Shown here in pieces: positions 1 to 24,847 of a DNA stretch of 57,587 nucleotides (position 1 is the first letter of the stretch; the number at the start of each line of letters is the position of its first letter). Position numbers and translations under genes: made by a program. The stretch is from a virus. Taxonomy: Duplodnaviria; Caudoviricetes. The notes beneath the pieces are model-generated. The model had not been told where the DNA came from. It saw only the letters and a list, made by a program, of their open reading frames with translations, and did not search any database. The stretch spans positions 1 to 57,587 of IMG/VR virus record IMGVR_UViG_3300048853_000105. One strand, 5' to 3'.

Positions 1-31
1 TCAGCATAAAAGTGTTTTTTTTCCTGAAATG

Positions 32-66
32 AAAAAACCCGCCCTAGATAAGTCTAGGACGGGTTC
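32..66 (-). terminator. Intrinsic terminator downstream of the tRNA 3' fragment
   Basis: Arms AACCCGCCCTAGA / TCTAGGACGGGTT (one mismatch) with a U-tract on the minus strand. Confidence 0.75.
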
Positions 67-84
67 TGCGGAGAGTGGGGGATT
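67..84 (-). mobile_element. att core: 3' end of a tRNA-Ser gene
   Basis: Minus strand AATCCCCCACTCTCCGCA = T-arm 3' half plus acceptor strand typical of tRNA-Ser; the rest of the tRNA is absent; integrase at the other window end. Confidence 0.75.
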
Positions 85-3784: not shown

Positions 3785-3982
3785 ATGGATAATCACACAG
3801 CTAAAATCAAAGAGATCCTTAGAGGCATCGACGATGAGATCGAGCAGTATGAGAAAGCCCAGGCTGAAGCTTATGAGCATGCAAAGTTTGTCTCCGGCAA
3901 CATCGCTGGGCTGAGAAGAGCCCGGACAACATTAGAAATATTCTTTCACAACGATTTAAAGGAGGAAACGCAACATGTATAA
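3785..3982 (+). CDS. Hypothetical coiled-coil protein
   Basis: Operon-coupled ORF. Confidence 0.6.
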   Translation: MDNHTAKIKEILRGIDDEIEQYEKAQAEAYEHAKFVSGNIAGLRRARTTLEIFFHNDLKEETQHV

Positions 3983-13487: not shown

Positions 13488-13511
13488 ATGCTTAATTAAC
13501 ATAAAGAACAT
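13488..13511 (+). promoter_or_regulatory. 24-bp box copy 1
   Basis: ATGCTTAATTAACATAAAGAACAT. Confidence 0.55.
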
Positions 13512-19744: not shown

Positions 19745-19938
19745 AAAATAAAGAATTATCATCAGAACACCGGATTCAGATAGAGCATCTTATAGCAGAG
19801 CTAGAATCCGGTATAAAAACAAAGAAGCTTGATTCTAAAAGGATCAAAGAAATTGTAAAAGAACTTTTTGATTGGCTTATGCTCTTGAAGCCCGTCCTTA
19901 AGGATATTATTGAATCATGGATACAGGGAAACTTTTAG
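19693..19938 (+). CDS. Small helical moron protein
   Basis: GTG start, overlaps both neighbours. Confidence 0.55.
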   Translation: MDQDKLQTAIRIANSLLENKELSSEHRIQIEHLIAELESGIKTKKLDSKRIKEIVKELFDWLMLLKPVLKDIIESWIQGNF

Positions 19939-20201
19939 CAGAATTAAGAAAGAAAAAAGGTTTAAGCCAAGCTGAGTTGGCTTCAGCTGCGGGTATTACC
20001 CAGGCCTCACTTTCACATATTGAAAATGGAAGTAAGAAGCCGCATAAAAGTACAATTGACAAGTTGTGTGAGGCATTAGACATGCCTCCACAAATGTTCT
20101 ACTTTCTAACAATTAGGGAAGAAGATCTTCCAGATAGCAGCCGTGAGAAGTTCACAAGCATAGAGAGCGATCTGAAGAAGTTGATATTGGATACTTTTTA
20201 A
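19917..20201 (+). CDS. XRE-family HTH protein
   Basis: LRKKKGLSQAELASAAGITQASLSHIENG. Confidence 0.9.
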   Translation: MDTGKLLAELRKKKGLSQAELASAAGITQASLSHIENGSKKPHKSTIDKLCEALDMPPQMFYFLTIREEDLPDSSREKFTSIESDLKKLILDTF

Positions 20202-20265
20202 ACTTGGTCCACATATATTGTCAACCCAATAGTTGTTTTTTACATTACTTATAAGATTTAGCAAA

Positions 20266-20613
20266 ATGAAGAGAGACCTTACGCTATCAAAGAAGATTCT
20301 TGCGTTTGTCGAAGTGGAGCCACCAGCACCTTACGTGATGAATGTTGTAATTGACGGATATACGAAACAGGAAATTAATTACCATTTGCAACTGCTTGAA
20401 GATGCAGGATATGTGCTTTGCCATCATACAAGTAATGGCCATAAACCAAAGCGGCTAACTAATAGCGGCCATGACTTTTTAGAAGCATCTAGGAACGAGG
20501 GAGTATGGAATAGAATGATCAAGACCGGAAAAGACAAGGGTGTTGACTTGTCATTGTCACTCGCGAAAGAACTTTTAATATCATATTCTAAGGAGTTATT
20601 AGGCCTGCAATAA
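20266..20613 (+). CDS. DUF2513-like winged-helix protein
   Basis: MKRDL..YHLQLLEDAGY..RLTNSGHDFLEA. Confidence 0.75.
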   Translation: MKRDLTLSKKILAFVEVEPPAPYVMNVVIDGYTKQEINYHLQLLEDAGYVLCHHTSNGHKPKRLTNSGHDFLEASRNEGVWNRMIKTGKDKGVDLSLSLAKELLISYSKELLGLQ

Positions 20614-20775: not shown

Positions 20776-20868
20776 CATAAAATATACAAACGCAATGGCT
20801 AGGTATAAAGATTTTGACTGAGGAAAAAAAGGAAGAGCCTATCAGGATGTCGGTGCGTTAAATTTGGT

Positions 20869-21030
20869 TTACTTTTTCAACCTATAATACAGCTTTCGGC
20901 ACTTCATGCACTTGTATTGTGCGATCGGTAACCAGAACAAGAAAGTTTTTATCCATCTGCTGCGTGGAACTCGGTCTACGCTGACGTTTCCGCACCCGGA
21001 GCACTTTTCGATTCTGGTTCCTGTCATCAT
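20869..21030 (-). CDS. 53-aa zinc-ribbon protein, absent from ORF track
   Basis: CSGC...YKCMKC. Confidence 0.7.
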   Translation of the reverse strand: MMTGTRIEKCSGCGNVSVDRVPRSRWIKTFLFWLPIAQYKCMKCRKLYYRLKK

Positions 21031-21120
21031 AGTTTATTTGATTATTAAAGTTCTCGTAAAGCCAACAAACCTATAAATAGTTTAACGGCGTATGGTTAAA
21101 GTATTGCATTGTTCAGTTTC

Positions 21121-21190
21121 AAAAAAATGCGGGGTGCCCGCCCAGGTCCCCGCACTTGAAACACTCAGATCCATGGTGGTGGAATATCAA
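21121..21190 (-). ncRNA. Predicted sRNA U2 (CCTGG-hairpin family)
   Basis: TACCTTGC (21197-21204); GCGGGGACCTGGGCGGGCACCCCGC-A-T7. Confidence 0.6.
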
Positions 21191-21336
21191 AGCATCGCAA
21201 GGTAGCTGAACGGCATTAAGAACAAGTTAAGTACGAATCAACGTTCGTGTACATGATCTAGTCGATGATAATGCAACAAAAAAGCCCCCCATTTCTGAAA
21301 GGCTTTGACTAAAGCTCTTGTATTCTCTACTAGTTG

Positions 21337-21558
21337 CTAGTTAATACTGATTTGTGGATAGCAGGTGCTGACGAAGCTTGCATGAGCATCAAATCCGGTA
21401 CATTGTAAATTGATATCGTTGGTGCGTGTGTCAATAACGCAGATTATAAACATGCCTTTTCTACTTATCGAATGCAGCTTGTTCTGTAGACATTTATCGG
21501 ATTGAACTTCGGCAGACTTGTATCCAGCTTCTGTGTCTAGGTAAATTATTCGTAGCAT
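21337..21558 (-). CDS. Hypothetical moron protein
   Basis: Own TATGTTGC element (21585-21592) and terminator near 21278-21306. Confidence 0.6.
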   Translation of the reverse strand: MLRIIYLDTEAGYKSAEVQSDKCLQNKLHSISRKGMFIICVIDTRTNDINLQCTGFDAHASFVSTCYPQISIN

Positions 21559-21714
21559 AACATTGACTTAACATTTGTGTGTATGCAACATACGGGATTT
21601 GTCTGCCAGAACTTGTCAACTACACTTATTATGAGTAGAGCTTTTACATTTTTGCTCGTGAATGAAAGATGATTGTGAAAATCGGTGTGGTGAGTTGATA
21701 ACTACCATGAAATA

Positions 21715-21761
21715 GAAAAGGGCAACCATGGCTGGCTGCCCAATTCAAATTAACGCTCTCA
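21715..21761 (-). ncRNA. Predicted sRNA U3 (~45 nt)
   Basis: TACTTTTG (21766-21773); GGGCAGCCA/TGGTTGCCC-T4. Confidence 0.55.
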
Positions 21762-21907
21762 AGGACAAAAGTAGCAATAGGAGGGATTTCATCAATAGCT
21801 TTCTAGAGAACGTGCATCAAAGTGTATAATCAACACTAACTGATTTCACACATGAAACTATTTCACTAAGAATTGATGCTGATGCATCAAATGAAATTTA
21901 AAGTATT

Positions 21908-21945
21908 ATGCTCTTTTGACATTAACAGCATAATTACTATATTTG
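21908..21945 (+). promoter_or_regulatory. 24-bp box copy 3 plus promoter
   Basis: ATGCTCTTTTGACATTAACAGCAT, 6 nt, TATATTTG. Confidence 0.7.
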
Positions 21946-22110
21946 ATTTATACGAACGACGCGGCCACGTCAAAAAAGATCTTGAATGTCTTTGGAGTGA
22001 CGCTGGCCGGCTGAAACTTCAAGGGCATTTCTCATTTAAGGACTACATACACACAAACAACCCAGCCTGCATAGAAATATGCGGGCTTTTCCAGCTAAAA
22101 ACCTTTCATT

Positions 22111-22218
22111 ATGGAACTACTGATCATTCTGATCGCGGTTATTGCTGCTGGCATAGTCGCATCAATCGAAGGCGTATGGCATGCCGGCGAACTGGACGCT
22201 AACGATGTAAACTTTTAA
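22111..22218 (+). CDS. 35-aa membrane peptide
   Basis: MELLIILIAVIAAGIVAS... Confidence 0.6.
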   Translation: MELLIILIAVIAAGIVASIEGVWHAGELDANDVNF

Positions 22219-22220
22219 TT

Positions 22221-22340
22221 ATGGCAAGCATCGGACAACATGGATCAGGGCACGATTGCCCGACATGGAAAATTGTAGCGATCATCATCATCGCGGTGCT
22301 GGTCTTTTCTCCAATCGTATTTAAAGCTTTAGGGGGGTAG
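22221..22340 (+). CDS. 39-aa membrane peptide
   Basis: ...WKIVAIIIIAVLVFSPIVFK; 2 nt after previous stop. Confidence 0.6.
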   Translation: MASIGQHGSGHDCPTWKIVAIIIIAVLVFSPIVFKALGG

Positions 22341-22344
22341 AGCC

Positions 22345-22488
22345 ATGAGAACCATTAAACTAATCATCCTGGTAGCAGCCGTTGCGCTGTCATCGTGTGC
22401 AAAAGAAGATCTCACTTCGGAAAGGTACAAACGTCCTGATGAGGTTAAAATGCCTGTGAAAGTAATTGAAGTGAAACCTAACTACTAA
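22345..22488 (+). CDS. 47-aa lipoprotein
   Basis: MRTIKLIILVAAVALSSC. Confidence 0.7.
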   Translation: MRTIKLIILVAAVALSSCAKEDLTSERYKRPDEVKMPVKVIEVKPNY

Positions 22489-22491
22489 GCT

Positions 22492-22749
22492 ATGATACAG
22501 AAAACAACCATCCAACAAATAGAAGAGGTGACGATCTTACAGATCCGAGCATTAGACACGCGGGTTCCCCTGGAAGCAGCGCAGGCATTGCACCAACTGA
22601 AGCTGCACCTAATCAACCAGTACTACAATGAGCAGCTGCTGAAGAGAGCAGAGCGTTTGATGCGCCCGAATGCGTGGCAGAGGCTGGTATATTCATTTAT
22701 GAGCCTAAAAAAGAAGCGGGTAACCTATCCAGGCACCCGCTTGCAGTAA
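22492..22749 (+). CDS. Hypothetical protein
   Basis: 3 nt after previous stop. Confidence 0.6.
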   Translation: MIQKTTIQQIEEVTILQIRALDTRVPLEAAQALHQLKLHLINQYYNEQLLKRAERLMRPNAWQRLVYSFMSLKKKRVTYPGTRLQ

Positions 22750-22778
22750 CACGTAACTAATTCACCATTAGTTCTAAC
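22707..22778 (-). ncRNA. Predicted sRNA U4 (CCTGG-hairpin family)
   Basis: TATATTGC (22785-22792); GCGGGTGCCTGGATAGGTTACCCGC-TTCT6. Confidence 0.6.
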
Positions 22779-22831
22779 CTGAAGGCAATATAACATTGCC
22801 ACATTAAAACGAGGTTAAATGTAGAAAAGCA

Positions 22832-23011
22832 ATGAAACCAATCTACAGATTCACATACCTGCTGCTGGTCCTGATAGGATGCATCCTGTTTGTCGCATTG
22901 ATTTTTGCAGATCCGTTCATTTGGGCTCTAACCGGCAAGTCACCTGCATGTCGGTTTCTCGATCGATATTCTGATTGGATGGAAAGCTGGAAGAAACGGA
23001 AGGGCATATGA
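22832..23011 (+). CDS. 59-aa membrane peptide with basic tail
   Basis: YLLLVLIGCILFVALIFA...WKKRKGI. Confidence 0.6.
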   Translation: MKPIYRFTYLLLVLIGCILFVALIFADPFIWALTGKSPACRFLDRYSDWMESWKKRKGI

Positions 23012-23020
23012 GTATTGATT

Positions 23021-23089
23021 AAAGCAAAGCGGGTAGCCCATCCAGGTACCCGCATACGCTAACACGCACTCAAAATTGAGTTAACTATT
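23021..23089 (-). ncRNA. Predicted sRNA U5 (CCTGG-hairpin family)
   Basis: TATATTGC (23096-23103); GCGGGTACCTGGATGGGCTACCCGC-TTTGCTTT. Confidence 0.6.
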
Positions 23090-23198
23090 TCGATTGCAAT
23101 ATAGCATCGACTTATTAGAGGGATATAAGAATAGAATTAGAATTTCAGATTTAGGAAGAGACGCTGGATAGCGCGAATAGTCGAGAGGGTAGATATTC

Positions 23199-23245
23199 AA
23201 AACAAGCGGGGGCTAAATTAACGCTCTCATATGGGTGCCCCCGCT
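23199..23245 (-). ncRNA. Hairpin U6 with 23-nt loop; possible sRNA 3' end
   Basis: AGCGGGGGC/GCCCCCGCT; loop shares 15 nt with U3; promoter unclear. Confidence 0.4.
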
Positions 23246-23366
23246 ATCAAACTCAAATTTAATTAACGACAATAGCTTGAGTTACCGGCCATCCAACCTT
23301 CGTGAAGACAATATGGCCCAAGGCCAAAGTAAAACCAAATAAATTTTAAAATAAATCTAACTAACC

Positions 23367-23711
23367 ATGTTACAATCCTACCAAACCCATCAGCAGCCGG
23401 CACGAACCAACGTTCGCAGCACGGTACAAGGTCAAACACCTGAAGCGATAATCCAGGCAGTCTGCGAAGCTTTAAAAGTGAATAAGGCTGATCTGCTTGG
23501 GCCAGAAAGATCTGGAAAACTCAAAGTAGCCAGGCGAATTGCGATCGGGTTAATCCTGATGGCGGATCCAATGATCACGCTAAAAGTGGTAGGGCAGATG
23601 TTCGGCCGGAATCATACCACCATCATCTACAACCGGGATCAGTTCTATGATCAGAACGGTACCAACCGGGAATTAACTAATAAAGTCAAGATGGTTACCT
23701 ACCTGTTATAA
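23367..23711 (+). CDS. Second DnaA C-terminal-like HTH protein
   Basis: VARRIAIGLI..TLKVVGQMFGRNHTTIIY. Confidence 0.82.
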   Translation: MLQSYQTHQQPARTNVRSTVQGQTPEAIIQAVCEALKVNKADLLGPERSGKLKVARRIAIGLILMADPMITLKVVGQMFGRNHTTIIYNRDQFYDQNGTNRELTNKVKMVTYLL

Positions 23712-23780
23712 AACAATAGCGGAACCCATCCAGGCGCCGCTAATGAAAAGTAAGATAATTGAAGTAAAGTGTATCATAAA
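23709..23780 (-). ncRNA. Predicted sRNA U7 (CCTGG-hairpin family)
   Basis: TATATTGC (23787-23794); AGCGGCGCCTGGATGGGTTCCGCT-ATTGTTTT. Confidence 0.55.
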
Positions 23781-23818
23781 TCGTCCGCAATATATACCCG
23801 CCACATAAAGTCAGTATC

Positions 23819-24277
23819 ATGAAAACATTAACAATTAAAAACCCTTGGGCACTGCTTATTGCTGCAGGGATTAAAGACATCGAGAACCGAACCTGGAGAA
23901 CTAAGTTCAGGGGTAGGATATACATTCATGCCGGTCAGTCCTTGGCTTGTAATAAGTTCGGCGACCTGGGTGGTCTGATGACCGCGGACCAAATACAAGC
24001 AATAGGACTGGATGCTCCTGAAGTACGCAAACTCATATTCAAATCTGCCTTTAACCAATCGATGATCATCGGAGAAGTTGATATCGTCGACTGCGTACTC
24101 AATCATCCAAGCGTGTGGGCCGAGCAAATGACGTATGATAAATGTCCGGAAACCGGGATTCATATACTGCGCAAAGGCCAGCCATACGTCTGGAACTGGG
24201 TGCTTGCAAATCCGGTGCTCTATGACAAGCCGATCGAGAATGTAAAAGGGAAACTTAGCTTTTGGGAGTACCATTAG
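23819..24277 (+). CDS. ASCH domain protein
   Basis: LTIKNPWALLIAAGIKDIENRTW..RGRIYIHA; KGKLSFW. Confidence 0.9.
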   Translation: MKTLTIKNPWALLIAAGIKDIENRTWRTKFRGRIYIHAGQSLACNKFGDLGGLMTADQIQAIGLDAPEVRKLIFKSAFNQSMIIGEVDIVDCVLNHPSVWAEQMTYDKCPETGIHILRKGQPYVWNWVLANPVLYDKPIENVKGKLSFWEYH

Positions 24278-24847
24278 TTATTTTAGCCAATCCGGACGGC
24301 TCCTGGATAGTACAATAATATCTTCAGAAGTAGGTTTTACCGGTAAATCAATTAGATCGTAAGTAATGAATGTTCTTGCTGTGTCGCTAATTGTGAAATT
24401 AAAACAAGGCTCACCATAGAATATGCCACCATGACTACTTACTTGCACTAGTATCCACTTATTAATAAGACCTGCCACAGTAGGATGAGTGAATGGTAGT
24501 GGAATTGTGTCATGACCGTTCATGAAGAATTCTCGTAACACAGCTTTCTCTGATGATGTTAATTTTGATATATGGTTTTTAATGTTTTTCTTATTCTTTG
24601 ATCTGGTAAATACTAAACGGATTGAATTATATATATAAACCGTGATGTCTATTAATATCAGAACTGAAGAGATTAAAAACGCAGGACCGATGTACTGCGC
24701 ATAAGTATCACTTAGATTGTCTATATGTAGCTTCTGCTTCCACAACTCCGGAAGAAATAGAAACGAAGCCGAAAGAAGCGCAATAGGGAGTAGAAAACGA
24801 ATAGATATTTTCCCATTTTCAACAAATGTAGTCCAACTCATGTCCAA
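24278..24847 (-). CDS. SieB-like superinfection exclusion protein
   Basis: Two N-terminal TMs, then LTSSEKAVLREF...PTVAGLINKWIL. Confidence 0.7.
   Translation of the reverse strand: MDMSWTTFVENGKISIRFLLPIALLSASFLFLPELWKQKLHIDNLSDTYAQYIGPAFLISSVLILIDITVYIYNSIRLVFTRSKNKKNIKNHISKLTSSEKAVLREFFMNGHDTIPLPFTHPTVAGLINKWILVQVSSHGGIFYGEPCFNFTISDTARTFITYDLIDLPVKPTSEDIIVLSRSRPDWLK

Follow-up and report, generated by a model that had tools for sequence, protein, structure and literature searches.

The stretch of DNA analyzed here, hereafter the window, is a complete IMG/VR provirus record (IMGVR_UViG_3300048853_000105; 57.6 kilobases (kb), 57,587 base pairs (bp)) in which almost all long open reading frames (ORFs) lie on the plus strand. 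Within what its gene content marks as the early or regulatory part of this provirus, we found four minus-strand units, U2, U4, U5 and U7, each consisting of a TAnnTTGC box, a body, a hairpin and a T tail. An ASCH-guided search of genome contigs recovered relatives of a neighboring ASCH gene in Pedobacter antarcticus, P. metabolipauper and Pedobacter sp. KBW06; since these relatives sit in Pedobacter genomes, we take the host genus to be Pedobacter. None of the three genome loci from this search contained a unit. From the analyses described below, we propose that the four units probably belong to an undescribed family of small RNA (sRNA) genes, whose expression is predicted from sequence.

The U2 cassette (21120..21233, minus strand) has an upstream TTAAT element and the box TACCTTGC at 21197-21204, with a predicted transcription start (+1) at 21192. 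Its predicted RNA of 72 nucleotides (nt; ~21192 to 21121) would contain a first stem-loop (stem-loop 1; TCCA/TGGA), the motif GUGUU and a terminator hairpin (21129-21153) with its U tail. The U4 cassette (22707..22821, minus strand) has a TTTTAAT element and the box TATATTGC at 22785-22792 (predicted +1 at 22780), and its predicted 73-nt RNA (~22780 to 22708) would fold into stem-loop 1 (ACUAAU/AUUAGU), followed by GUGUUAC, a terminator hairpin (22716-22740) and a U tail. The U5 cassette (23020..23132, minus strand) carries the same box at 23096-23103 (predicted +1 at 23091) and a predicted RNA of 71 nt (~23091 to 23021) with stem-loop 1 (ACUCA/UGAGU), GUGUUAG and a terminator hairpin at 23029-23053. 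The U7 cassette (23708..23823, minus strand) is of a second subtype, B; its box, again TATATTGC, lies at 23787-23794 (predicted +1 at 23782), and its predicted RNA of ~73 nt begins GAUUUAUGAUACAC and has a G-poor, unstructured body before the terminator hairpin (23719-23740).

The pattern GCGG N1-4 CCTGGRYRGG N1-4 CCGC occurs four times in the window, each time on the minus strand, and 0 times in 100 dinucleotide shuffles, which bears out an earlier note on this DNA that had described four such units; for the 10-mer hairpin core, 4 copies were counted where 0.28 would be expected. The first base of the TAnnTTGC box lies 57-60 nt before the hairpin core in all four units, and the distance from box end to core is 49-52 nt, in agreement with the 50-53 nt given in that note. 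While TAnnTTGC occurs 26 times in the window with both strands counted, the box TATATTGC occurs 3 times, at U4, U5 and U7 only. In an alignment of the units, a TTAAT-like element lies ~10 nt before the box, and with +1 set at the fifth base past the box the predicted RNAs of U2, U4, U5 and U7 are 72, 73, 71 and 73 nt long. The internal stem-loops reported earlier (TCCA/TGGA, ACTAAT/ATTAGT and ACTCA/TGAGT, each with GTGTT) are present in U2, U4 and U5, and U7 is without one. As the four copies are paralogous, their regular spacing in the window is owed in part to shared descent and does not amount to four independent events. A cmscan of the whole window against Rfam 15 at gathering score gave 0 matches, and at E values up to 10 a scan of 20800-24000 gave only eukaryotic small nucleolar or long non-coding RNA noise; no family in this release covers the units.

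Counting these four, we recovered 15 distinct family units, 11 of them outside the window. Two are in proviruses (one each in G237 and G236), three are on metagenome contigs (L355, L359 and L360), and the remainder are in the Pedobacter genomes G201 (2), G110 (1), G111 (2) and G090 (1). Ten related provirus records were searched whole with model R1, which found the U4-type unit of G237 (U4 homolog; L129 2565-2646) and the U7-type unit of G236 (L126 3878-3965) and none in the other eight; a further U7 homolog is G201:C2 (L288 7763-7848), and the upstream promoter region of U2 is homologous to that of the G201:C2 unit. Model R3, which includes the promoter region, gave 14 matches in 11 of 151 Pedobacter genomes, five of which were full units in three genomes (two in G201, one in G110, two in G111), and on 151 sampled Sphingobacteriaceae genomes it gave five matches, one of them a unit (G090, again Pedobacter).

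The exact pattern TTGC N4 GATTTAT N28-50 CCTGGATRGG was found among viral contigs on the G237 contig only, and among metagenome contigs at 16 loci, 5 with units and 11 being chance matches without the hairpin; of these five, one has the same sequence as the G237 unit, another two match each other exactly, and the remaining two are additional distinct units. In scans of viral contigs for the hairpin alone or for TTGC plus the hairpin, full units among the matches listed were known copies only. When the 3.2-kb region was compared by BLAST with 235 Pedobacter genomes, with 2 candidates scored per genome, a common terminator and a GAGAGCG unit, both of them other elements, made up the bulk of the results.

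To define what is shared between copies, we compared units together with 400 nt of flank on either side by pairwise BLAST, giving positions relative to the first box base. Between unrelated loci, similarity extended from -26..-29 to +76..+89, the latter being the end of the T tail (G201C5-M360, -27..82; G110-M359, -28..76; G090-G201C5, -26..81; M360-U4, -29..82). Because similarity between unrelated loci ends there, the conserved object is a cassette of promoter, transcribed body and terminator, and the units behave as the separately promoted, equal-length minus-strand family that had been proposed for them. Their surroundings differ: the G201:C2 and G090 units follow leftward lipoprotein accessory genes and the terminator of those genes, the G110 unit adjoins imuA-imuB-dnaE2-like genes, the G201:C5 unit lies beside short-chain dehydrogenase-like and DJ-1/PfpI-like genes (names read from the ORFs), and the window units lie inside the early operon. 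A zinc-ribbon-like ORF of 53 amino acids (aa) in the window has a homolog with 77% identity on L355, and a family unit comes after that homolog; in the window itself, U2 precedes this ORF and a different terminator-ended unit follows it. We read the two arrangements as a probable exchange of cassettes. In the 53-aa ORF (window 20869-21030, minus strand; L355 1971-2126), two CxxC pairs flank a hydrophobic stretch. A similarly built 86-aa ORF lies just before the G201:C5 unit, and tblastn gave no link between the two.

The canonical -7 box of Bacteroidota promoters is TAnnTTTG. Across the family, a TAnnTT[GA]C box precedes the hairpin core by 52-61 nt in 15/15 units, the +1 placed five bases past the box is a G in 12/15, and the block GAUUUAU begins exactly at this predicted +1 in 9/15. 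The available text of PMC9723704 describes a motif associated with transcription start sites in Flavobacterium psychrophilum, SM5 (TAnnTTGY at -12..-5), whose conserved bases were confirmed by reporter mutagenesis at one operon and which its authors ascribe to an alternative sigma factor. The unit box, TAnnTTG(C), shares with SM5 a TA-to-TTG distance one base shorter than that of TAnnTTTG and a pyrimidine following the G, so the box matches a promoter type mapped in Bacteroidota, as had been supposed for it. The likeness crosses genera, and in the part of PMC9723704 available the upstream TTTAAT element of the Pedobacter units is not described for SM5. By this analogy, the coincidence of an SM5-like box with GAUUUAU at the predicted +1 suggests that the cassettes are transcribed, and it is the best indirect evidence of transcription that we obtained. 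A box TATGTTGC also lies 27 nt before the ATG of a leftward 73-aa ORF (window 21337-21558, minus strand). By eye, this ORF shares the motifs RIIY..GY.. and I.C.ID with a 119-aa ORF beside the G111:C49 unit (L342 1779-2138).

Several features of the hairpin bear on its strand. The T-rich tails of the units occur on the minus strand only, and 98.4% of hairpin alignment cells pair on the given strand (a structure-fitted alignment of seven units). The variable hairpin pairs are U-G/U-A, G-U/A-U and C-G/U-G, the wobbles of which would be C-A mismatches on the opposite strand, and the hairpin alone is stabler on the given strand in 8/11 units. These G-U pairs favor the minus strand, as first assigned. 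The predicted fold places CCU in the stem and leaves GGAU as a tetraloop, which does not bear out the YUNR U-turn that had been suggested for the CUGG sequence.

The hairpins could instead be plain leftward terminators that stop read-through from sieB or accessory genes and shield the rightward operon, with the boxes as relics or chance occurrences. Our scan found 12 intrinsic terminators in the window, 10 on the minus strand and 2 on the plus strand, and 7 of those 10 fall within 20.7-23.8 kb (3.1 kb), though most genes run rightward; the scan recovered the U2, U4, U5 and U7 hairpins, and a second scan of 19-26 kb gave 8 matches, all on the minus strand. The terminator map places the U7 hairpin as the first minus-strand terminator predicted downstream of the sieB-like gene. 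Model R2, which contains the hairpin and body without the promoter, matched in 61/151 sampled Pedobacter genomes. Among its best 30 matches, 20 were terminators immediately behind an ORF of 100 aa or more on the same strand (8/20 with a TGGAT loop), 2 were true units (G201:C2 and G110), 3 lay in another conserved sRNA-like unit, and 5 were other hairpins in short contexts, one of them beside a tRNA gene. Because 20 of the best 30 R2 matches end genes, the hairpin is a common Pedobacter terminator type and not the special constant scaffold that the earlier note had seen in it, and likeness of the hairpin carries little information. Ordinary Pedobacter Rho-independent terminators, such as GCGGCAACCTGGATGGGTGCCGC after a 498-aa ORF in L309, have the same GC-rich stem, CUGGAURG-type apical part and U tail; unlike the units, they lack the box, the GAUUUAU at +1 and the 45-nt body and directly follow long ORFs. 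Homologous hairpins without a promoter, taken in the note as the mark of plain terminators, are thus real among look-alikes at gene ends and absent among the units, which have the promoter in 15/15 cases. Similarity among units also reaches past the hairpin to the box and ~28 nt upstream of it, the box-to-hairpin distance is held throughout the family, TATATTGC is found nowhere else in the window, and the ACUCA-type body is conserved across genomes despite unrelated flanks. We consequently regard plain terminators as an unlikely account of the units. A further terminator sequence, AAAGCC..GGGGGCTTTTTT, follows the 73-aa ORF (window 21281-21306, minus strand); it is 88-95% identical in dozens of Pedobacter genomes and is a very common host-type terminator.

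We next describe the body between +1 and the hairpin, which defines two subtypes. Subtype A comprises U2, U4, U5, three metagenome units and the units of G237, G201:C5, G110, G111 (two) and G090, and has a 4-6-bp stem-loop that starts 6-11 nt from +1 and is followed by G(U/C)GUUAC and the terminator. Its stem-loop 1 position holds five differing arm sequences (ACUAAU/AUUAGU, ACUCA(A)/(U)UGAGU, UCCA/UGGA, AUAAC/GUUAT-type and UAACU/AGUUA), with two compensatory changes between the first two and a stability not above that of shuffles. Among ACUCA-type units of different genomes, whose flanks are unrelated, conservation of the body between +1 and the hairpin is 80-93%; their conserved 5' end is GAUUUAUGACUCA. 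Subtype B comprises U7 and the units of G236 and G201:C2, with a G-poor unstructured body that is 81-85% identical over three contexts. Across the wider family 5' GAUUUAU, stem-loop 1 and GUGUUAC are conserved, so the 5' part is not the variable seed that had been envisaged. A 23-codon hydrophobic frame in U7 was considered as a coding reading and rejected: it is lost in G236 and G201:C2, where spacers of 13, 14 and 12 nt in the three units shift the frame, and because this frame is not kept in the two homologs we regard the units as non-coding. Readings of the units as a CRISPR-repeat mimic, a retron or a type III antitoxin were also set aside, since the units come with neither tandem repeats nor a reverse transcriptase gene nor a cas context.

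Conservation of the body also speaks to whether the cassettes act at the level of DNA or transcription, by interference, by polymerase collision or as recombination joints between accessory modules, with an RNA that has no role of its own. U4, U5 and U7 face the rightward operon from its spacers, the chromosomal copies G201:C5, G110 and G090 are likewise convergent with the next gene, and cassettes are located at mosaic joints, all of which such action would explain. Were the promoter and terminator all that mattered, the body could drift, yet conservation extends to GAUUUAU, stem-loop 1 and GUGUUAC, and the U7-type bodies of the window and G201:C2, in different contexts, are 85% identical. 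Action without a role for the RNA therefore appears improbable to us.

The genes around the units place three of them opposite a rightward operon. An HTH_3 gene (19917-20201) and a DUF2513 gene (20233-20613) are followed by tightly packed small plus-strand ORFs (22111-23011), a DnaA_C-type helix-turn-helix (HTH) gene (23367-23711, plus strand), the ASCH gene (23819-24277; Pfam ASCH E 2.8e-5, phrog_3193 E 1e-35) and a sieB-like gene on the minus strand (24278-24847; Pfam SieB E 8.5e-28). These Pfam and phrog_3193 matches confirm the ASCH gene noted earlier next to U7, and a search of the window for tRNA or tmRNA found none. A 24-bp palindromic box (ATGCT..AGCAT) followed by TATATTTG lies at 21908-21945 on the plus strand and is likely to serve as promoter for the rightward operon, which comprises the small ORFs (22111-23011), DnaA_C-HTH and ASCH. 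A transcript from this site would cross these genes and run antisense through U4, U5 and U7. U4 is antisense to the 3' end of a plus-strand 85-aa ORF and to the spacer preceding a 59-aa ORF; U5 lies directly downstream of, and convergent with, this 59-aa membrane-peptide ORF (end 23011); and U7 is antisense to the spacer between DnaA_C-HTH (end 23711) and ASCH (start 23819), its box lying 25 nt from the ASCH start. In G236 (L126 ~3790-3870), the DnaA_C-HTH gene has been cut by an internal deletion to a ~24-codon remnant that keeps the first and last codons, and a U7-type unit is intact beside it. The ATGCT N14 AGCAT box has seven plus-strand copies in the window (13488, 16854, 21908, 25363, 27541, 29227 and 33318, the last with ATGTT), which sit where rightward operons start; in 6/7 a box of the TAnnTTT(G/A) type lies 2-15 nt beyond, and none lies within the 47 nt inspected at 13488. 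These palindromes are probably the operator of a phage regulator.

The small peptide genes among these ORFs had led to the suggestion that the RNAs are antitoxins, here of type I, for the interleaved plus-strand hydrophobic peptide genes (35, 39, 47 and 59 aa). Small membrane-like peptide genes do adjoin the units, with U5 just 3' and U4 5' of the 59-aa ORF, a geometry known from some type I toxin-antitoxin pairs. The association does not hold elsewhere: L126 keeps homologs of the 35-, 39- and 59-aa genes without U4 or U5 flanking them, L129 has the 59-aa gene with one unit (U4) only, the G201:C5, G110, G111 and G090 units have no such peptide gene opposite, and neither U2 nor U7 is opposite a peptide gene. 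We thus consider an antitoxin function very unlikely. A role in binding or titrating the ASCH protein, or a host RNA-binding protein of the RRM type, through the CCUGGAURGG hairpin is also very unlikely in our view. The upper stem and loop are conserved and common to all units, and the available text of PMC11697453 reports that FopS sRNAs bind RbpB in gut Bacteroides, but the same loop is found on ordinary-gene terminators and linkage to ASCH is not conserved. L129 has ASCH without U7, and the G201:C2 locus (16 kb) has a U7-type unit without ASCH.

Taking these data together, our preferred interpretation, held with moderate confidence, is that U2, U4, U5 and U7 are paralogous genes for ~72-nt non-coding RNAs, that they belong to a Pedobacter-restricted family of mobile cassettes, and that the RNAs are base-pairing regulators. 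The cassette promoter would consist of the TTTAAT element ~10 nt before the TAnnTTGY box, with +1 five bases past the box, and the transcript would start 5'-GAUUUAU in most family members. Its body would be a short stem-loop plus GUGUUAC in subtype A or a G-poor unstructured stretch in subtype B (U7), and transcription would end at an intrinsic terminator with CCUGGAURGG as its upper stem and loop. On the strand opposite the rightward early operon, U4, U5 and U7 occupy its spacers, and their RNAs would for this reason be fully complementary to operon mRNA after the 85-aa, 59-aa and DnaA_C-HTH frames. U2 sits in an island of leftward accessory genes ("morons"), and it and the chromosomal members have no gene opposite. 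What the data show is the anatomy, comprising the family, the limits of the cassette, its strand and, by analogy, the type of promoter. Given transcription with these ends, which we infer, the most likely mode of regulation would be base pairing: in cis, the units would act as antisense RNAs on spacers of the operon mRNA, as lambda OOP does on cII, and a role in trans is possible through pairing by the conserved, single-stranded 5' end.

Several observations weigh against this interpretation. The transcripts and both their 5' and 3' ends are predicted, the promoter assignment is borrowed from another genus (Flavobacterium) and the box is known here by sequence match, and the family was found in just 4 Pedobacter genomes among those sampled. 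The hairpin type is shared with the ends of ordinary Pedobacter genes, and that of U7 could simply be the sieB terminator. Covariation is weak, with a double change in 1/10 terminator pairs and a score reached by 119/500 shuffles; MAFFT left stem-loop 1 out of register, so that this column-wise count covers the terminator only. RNAalifold, which reported double changes in 6/13 pairs, recovered the terminator only and not stem-loop 1, and stem-loop 1 is no stabler than shuffles (z +1.4 to -1.3). Finally, when the first 48 nt of the four RNAs were paired by RNAduplex with 265 ORF start regions of the window, the best energies were no better than the yardstick, the median best energy of 30 shuffled RNAs.

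Phage RNAs of this size and placement have precedents. The available text of PMC12197685 gives 77 nt for lambda OOP RNA and 68/69 nt for P22 sar RNA; these are, like the predicted RNAs of the units, phage RNAs of ~70 nt with their own promoter and terminator directed against an early or regulatory operon. According to that text, OOP and sar act by pairing with the opposite mRNA, a mode of action that we infer for the Pedobacter units. The geometry of U4, U5 and U7 is close to that of lambda OOP relative to cII and only loosely like that of P22 sar. Unlike OOP and sar, the units are four paralogs in one phage, bear no sequence relation to either RNA, and belong to a family that also has chromosomal members facing no gene; an RNA that worked purely by cis-antisense pairing would have no need of such sites.

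The available text of PMC11697453 describes FopS/GibS as a multicopy paralogous sRNA family of Bacteroides thetaiotaomicron, with a model in Rfam 15; it also reports a FopS sequence in a phage, and its authors suggest spread by phages. By that text, every FopS copy combines a promoter of its own with a single-stranded, conserved 5' stretch and a Rho-independent terminator, as the Pedobacter units appear to do, and the conserved 5' end of the units, predicted to be single-stranded, resembles a trans-acting seed, as in FopS. The units differ in that the Rfam 15 scan of the window gave no match, in their additional stem-loop 1 and GUGUUAC motif, in their TAnnTTGY box in place of the canonical sigma-A box, and in number and host (1-4 copies per replicon in Pedobacter against 12-15 for FopS in the text available). 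Phage-borne and multicopy sRNA families are already known, and the Pedobacter locus is not a new kind of system. To our knowledge, Bacteroidota are without Hfq and ProQ.

We raise as a tentative idea, and one that we think rather unlikely, that Pedobacter prophages carry banks of interchangeable sRNA cassettes ("RNA morons"), in the window four of the GAUUUAU family and at least three other promoter-to-terminator units. Such cassettes would be swapped at fixed slots of phage and chromosome and, with expression in the lysogen from the non-canonical TAnnTTGY promoter class, would reprogram host genes in trans, a lysogenic conversion brought about by mobile sRNAs. As far as we know, the small-RNA biology of Bacteroidota comes almost only from gut Bacteroides and one Flavobacterium, and none of the publications listed by our literature search appeared to concern small RNAs of Pedobacter prophages. 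The family provides a concrete set, with a defined promoter, +1 and terminator and two subtypes, that is carried by temperate phages and apparently mobile as a cassette, and it ties the TAnnTTGY class, mapped so far only in Flavobacterium, to genes of phages and mobile elements. Should the RNAs prove to be expressed, this locus would offer a way to study the use of RNA by prophages to hold back their own early operon or to change the host.

Two further sRNA-like units were seen besides those of the GAUUUAU family. The first lies at window 21710-21790 (minus strand) and recurs at L126 1919-1987 and 6193-6268 and at L288 9741-9810. It has a perfect TAnnTTTG box (TACTTTTG), then UUGAGAGCGUUAAUUUGAAUU, then a terminator GGGCAGCC..GGUUGCCC; its sequence GAGAGCGTTAATTT is also found in the loop of a long hairpin at window 23200-23243 (minus strand). 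The 5' part of this unit (window 21744-21779) has 88-95% matches in dozens of Pedobacter genomes, and in relatives the unit precedes leftward lipoprotein accessory genes. The other is a conserved chromosomal unit on L299, L305, L318, L332 and L334-L338, from Pedobacter genomes G082, G132, G037, G071, G143, G231 and G228. It consists of the palindrome CTACTAAATTAGTAG, then TATATTTG, then ~40 nt (CAATGTTCATACA..TTTATATTTGGTT) and a terminator whose loop is of the CTTGGATGAG type or CCTGGATGGG.

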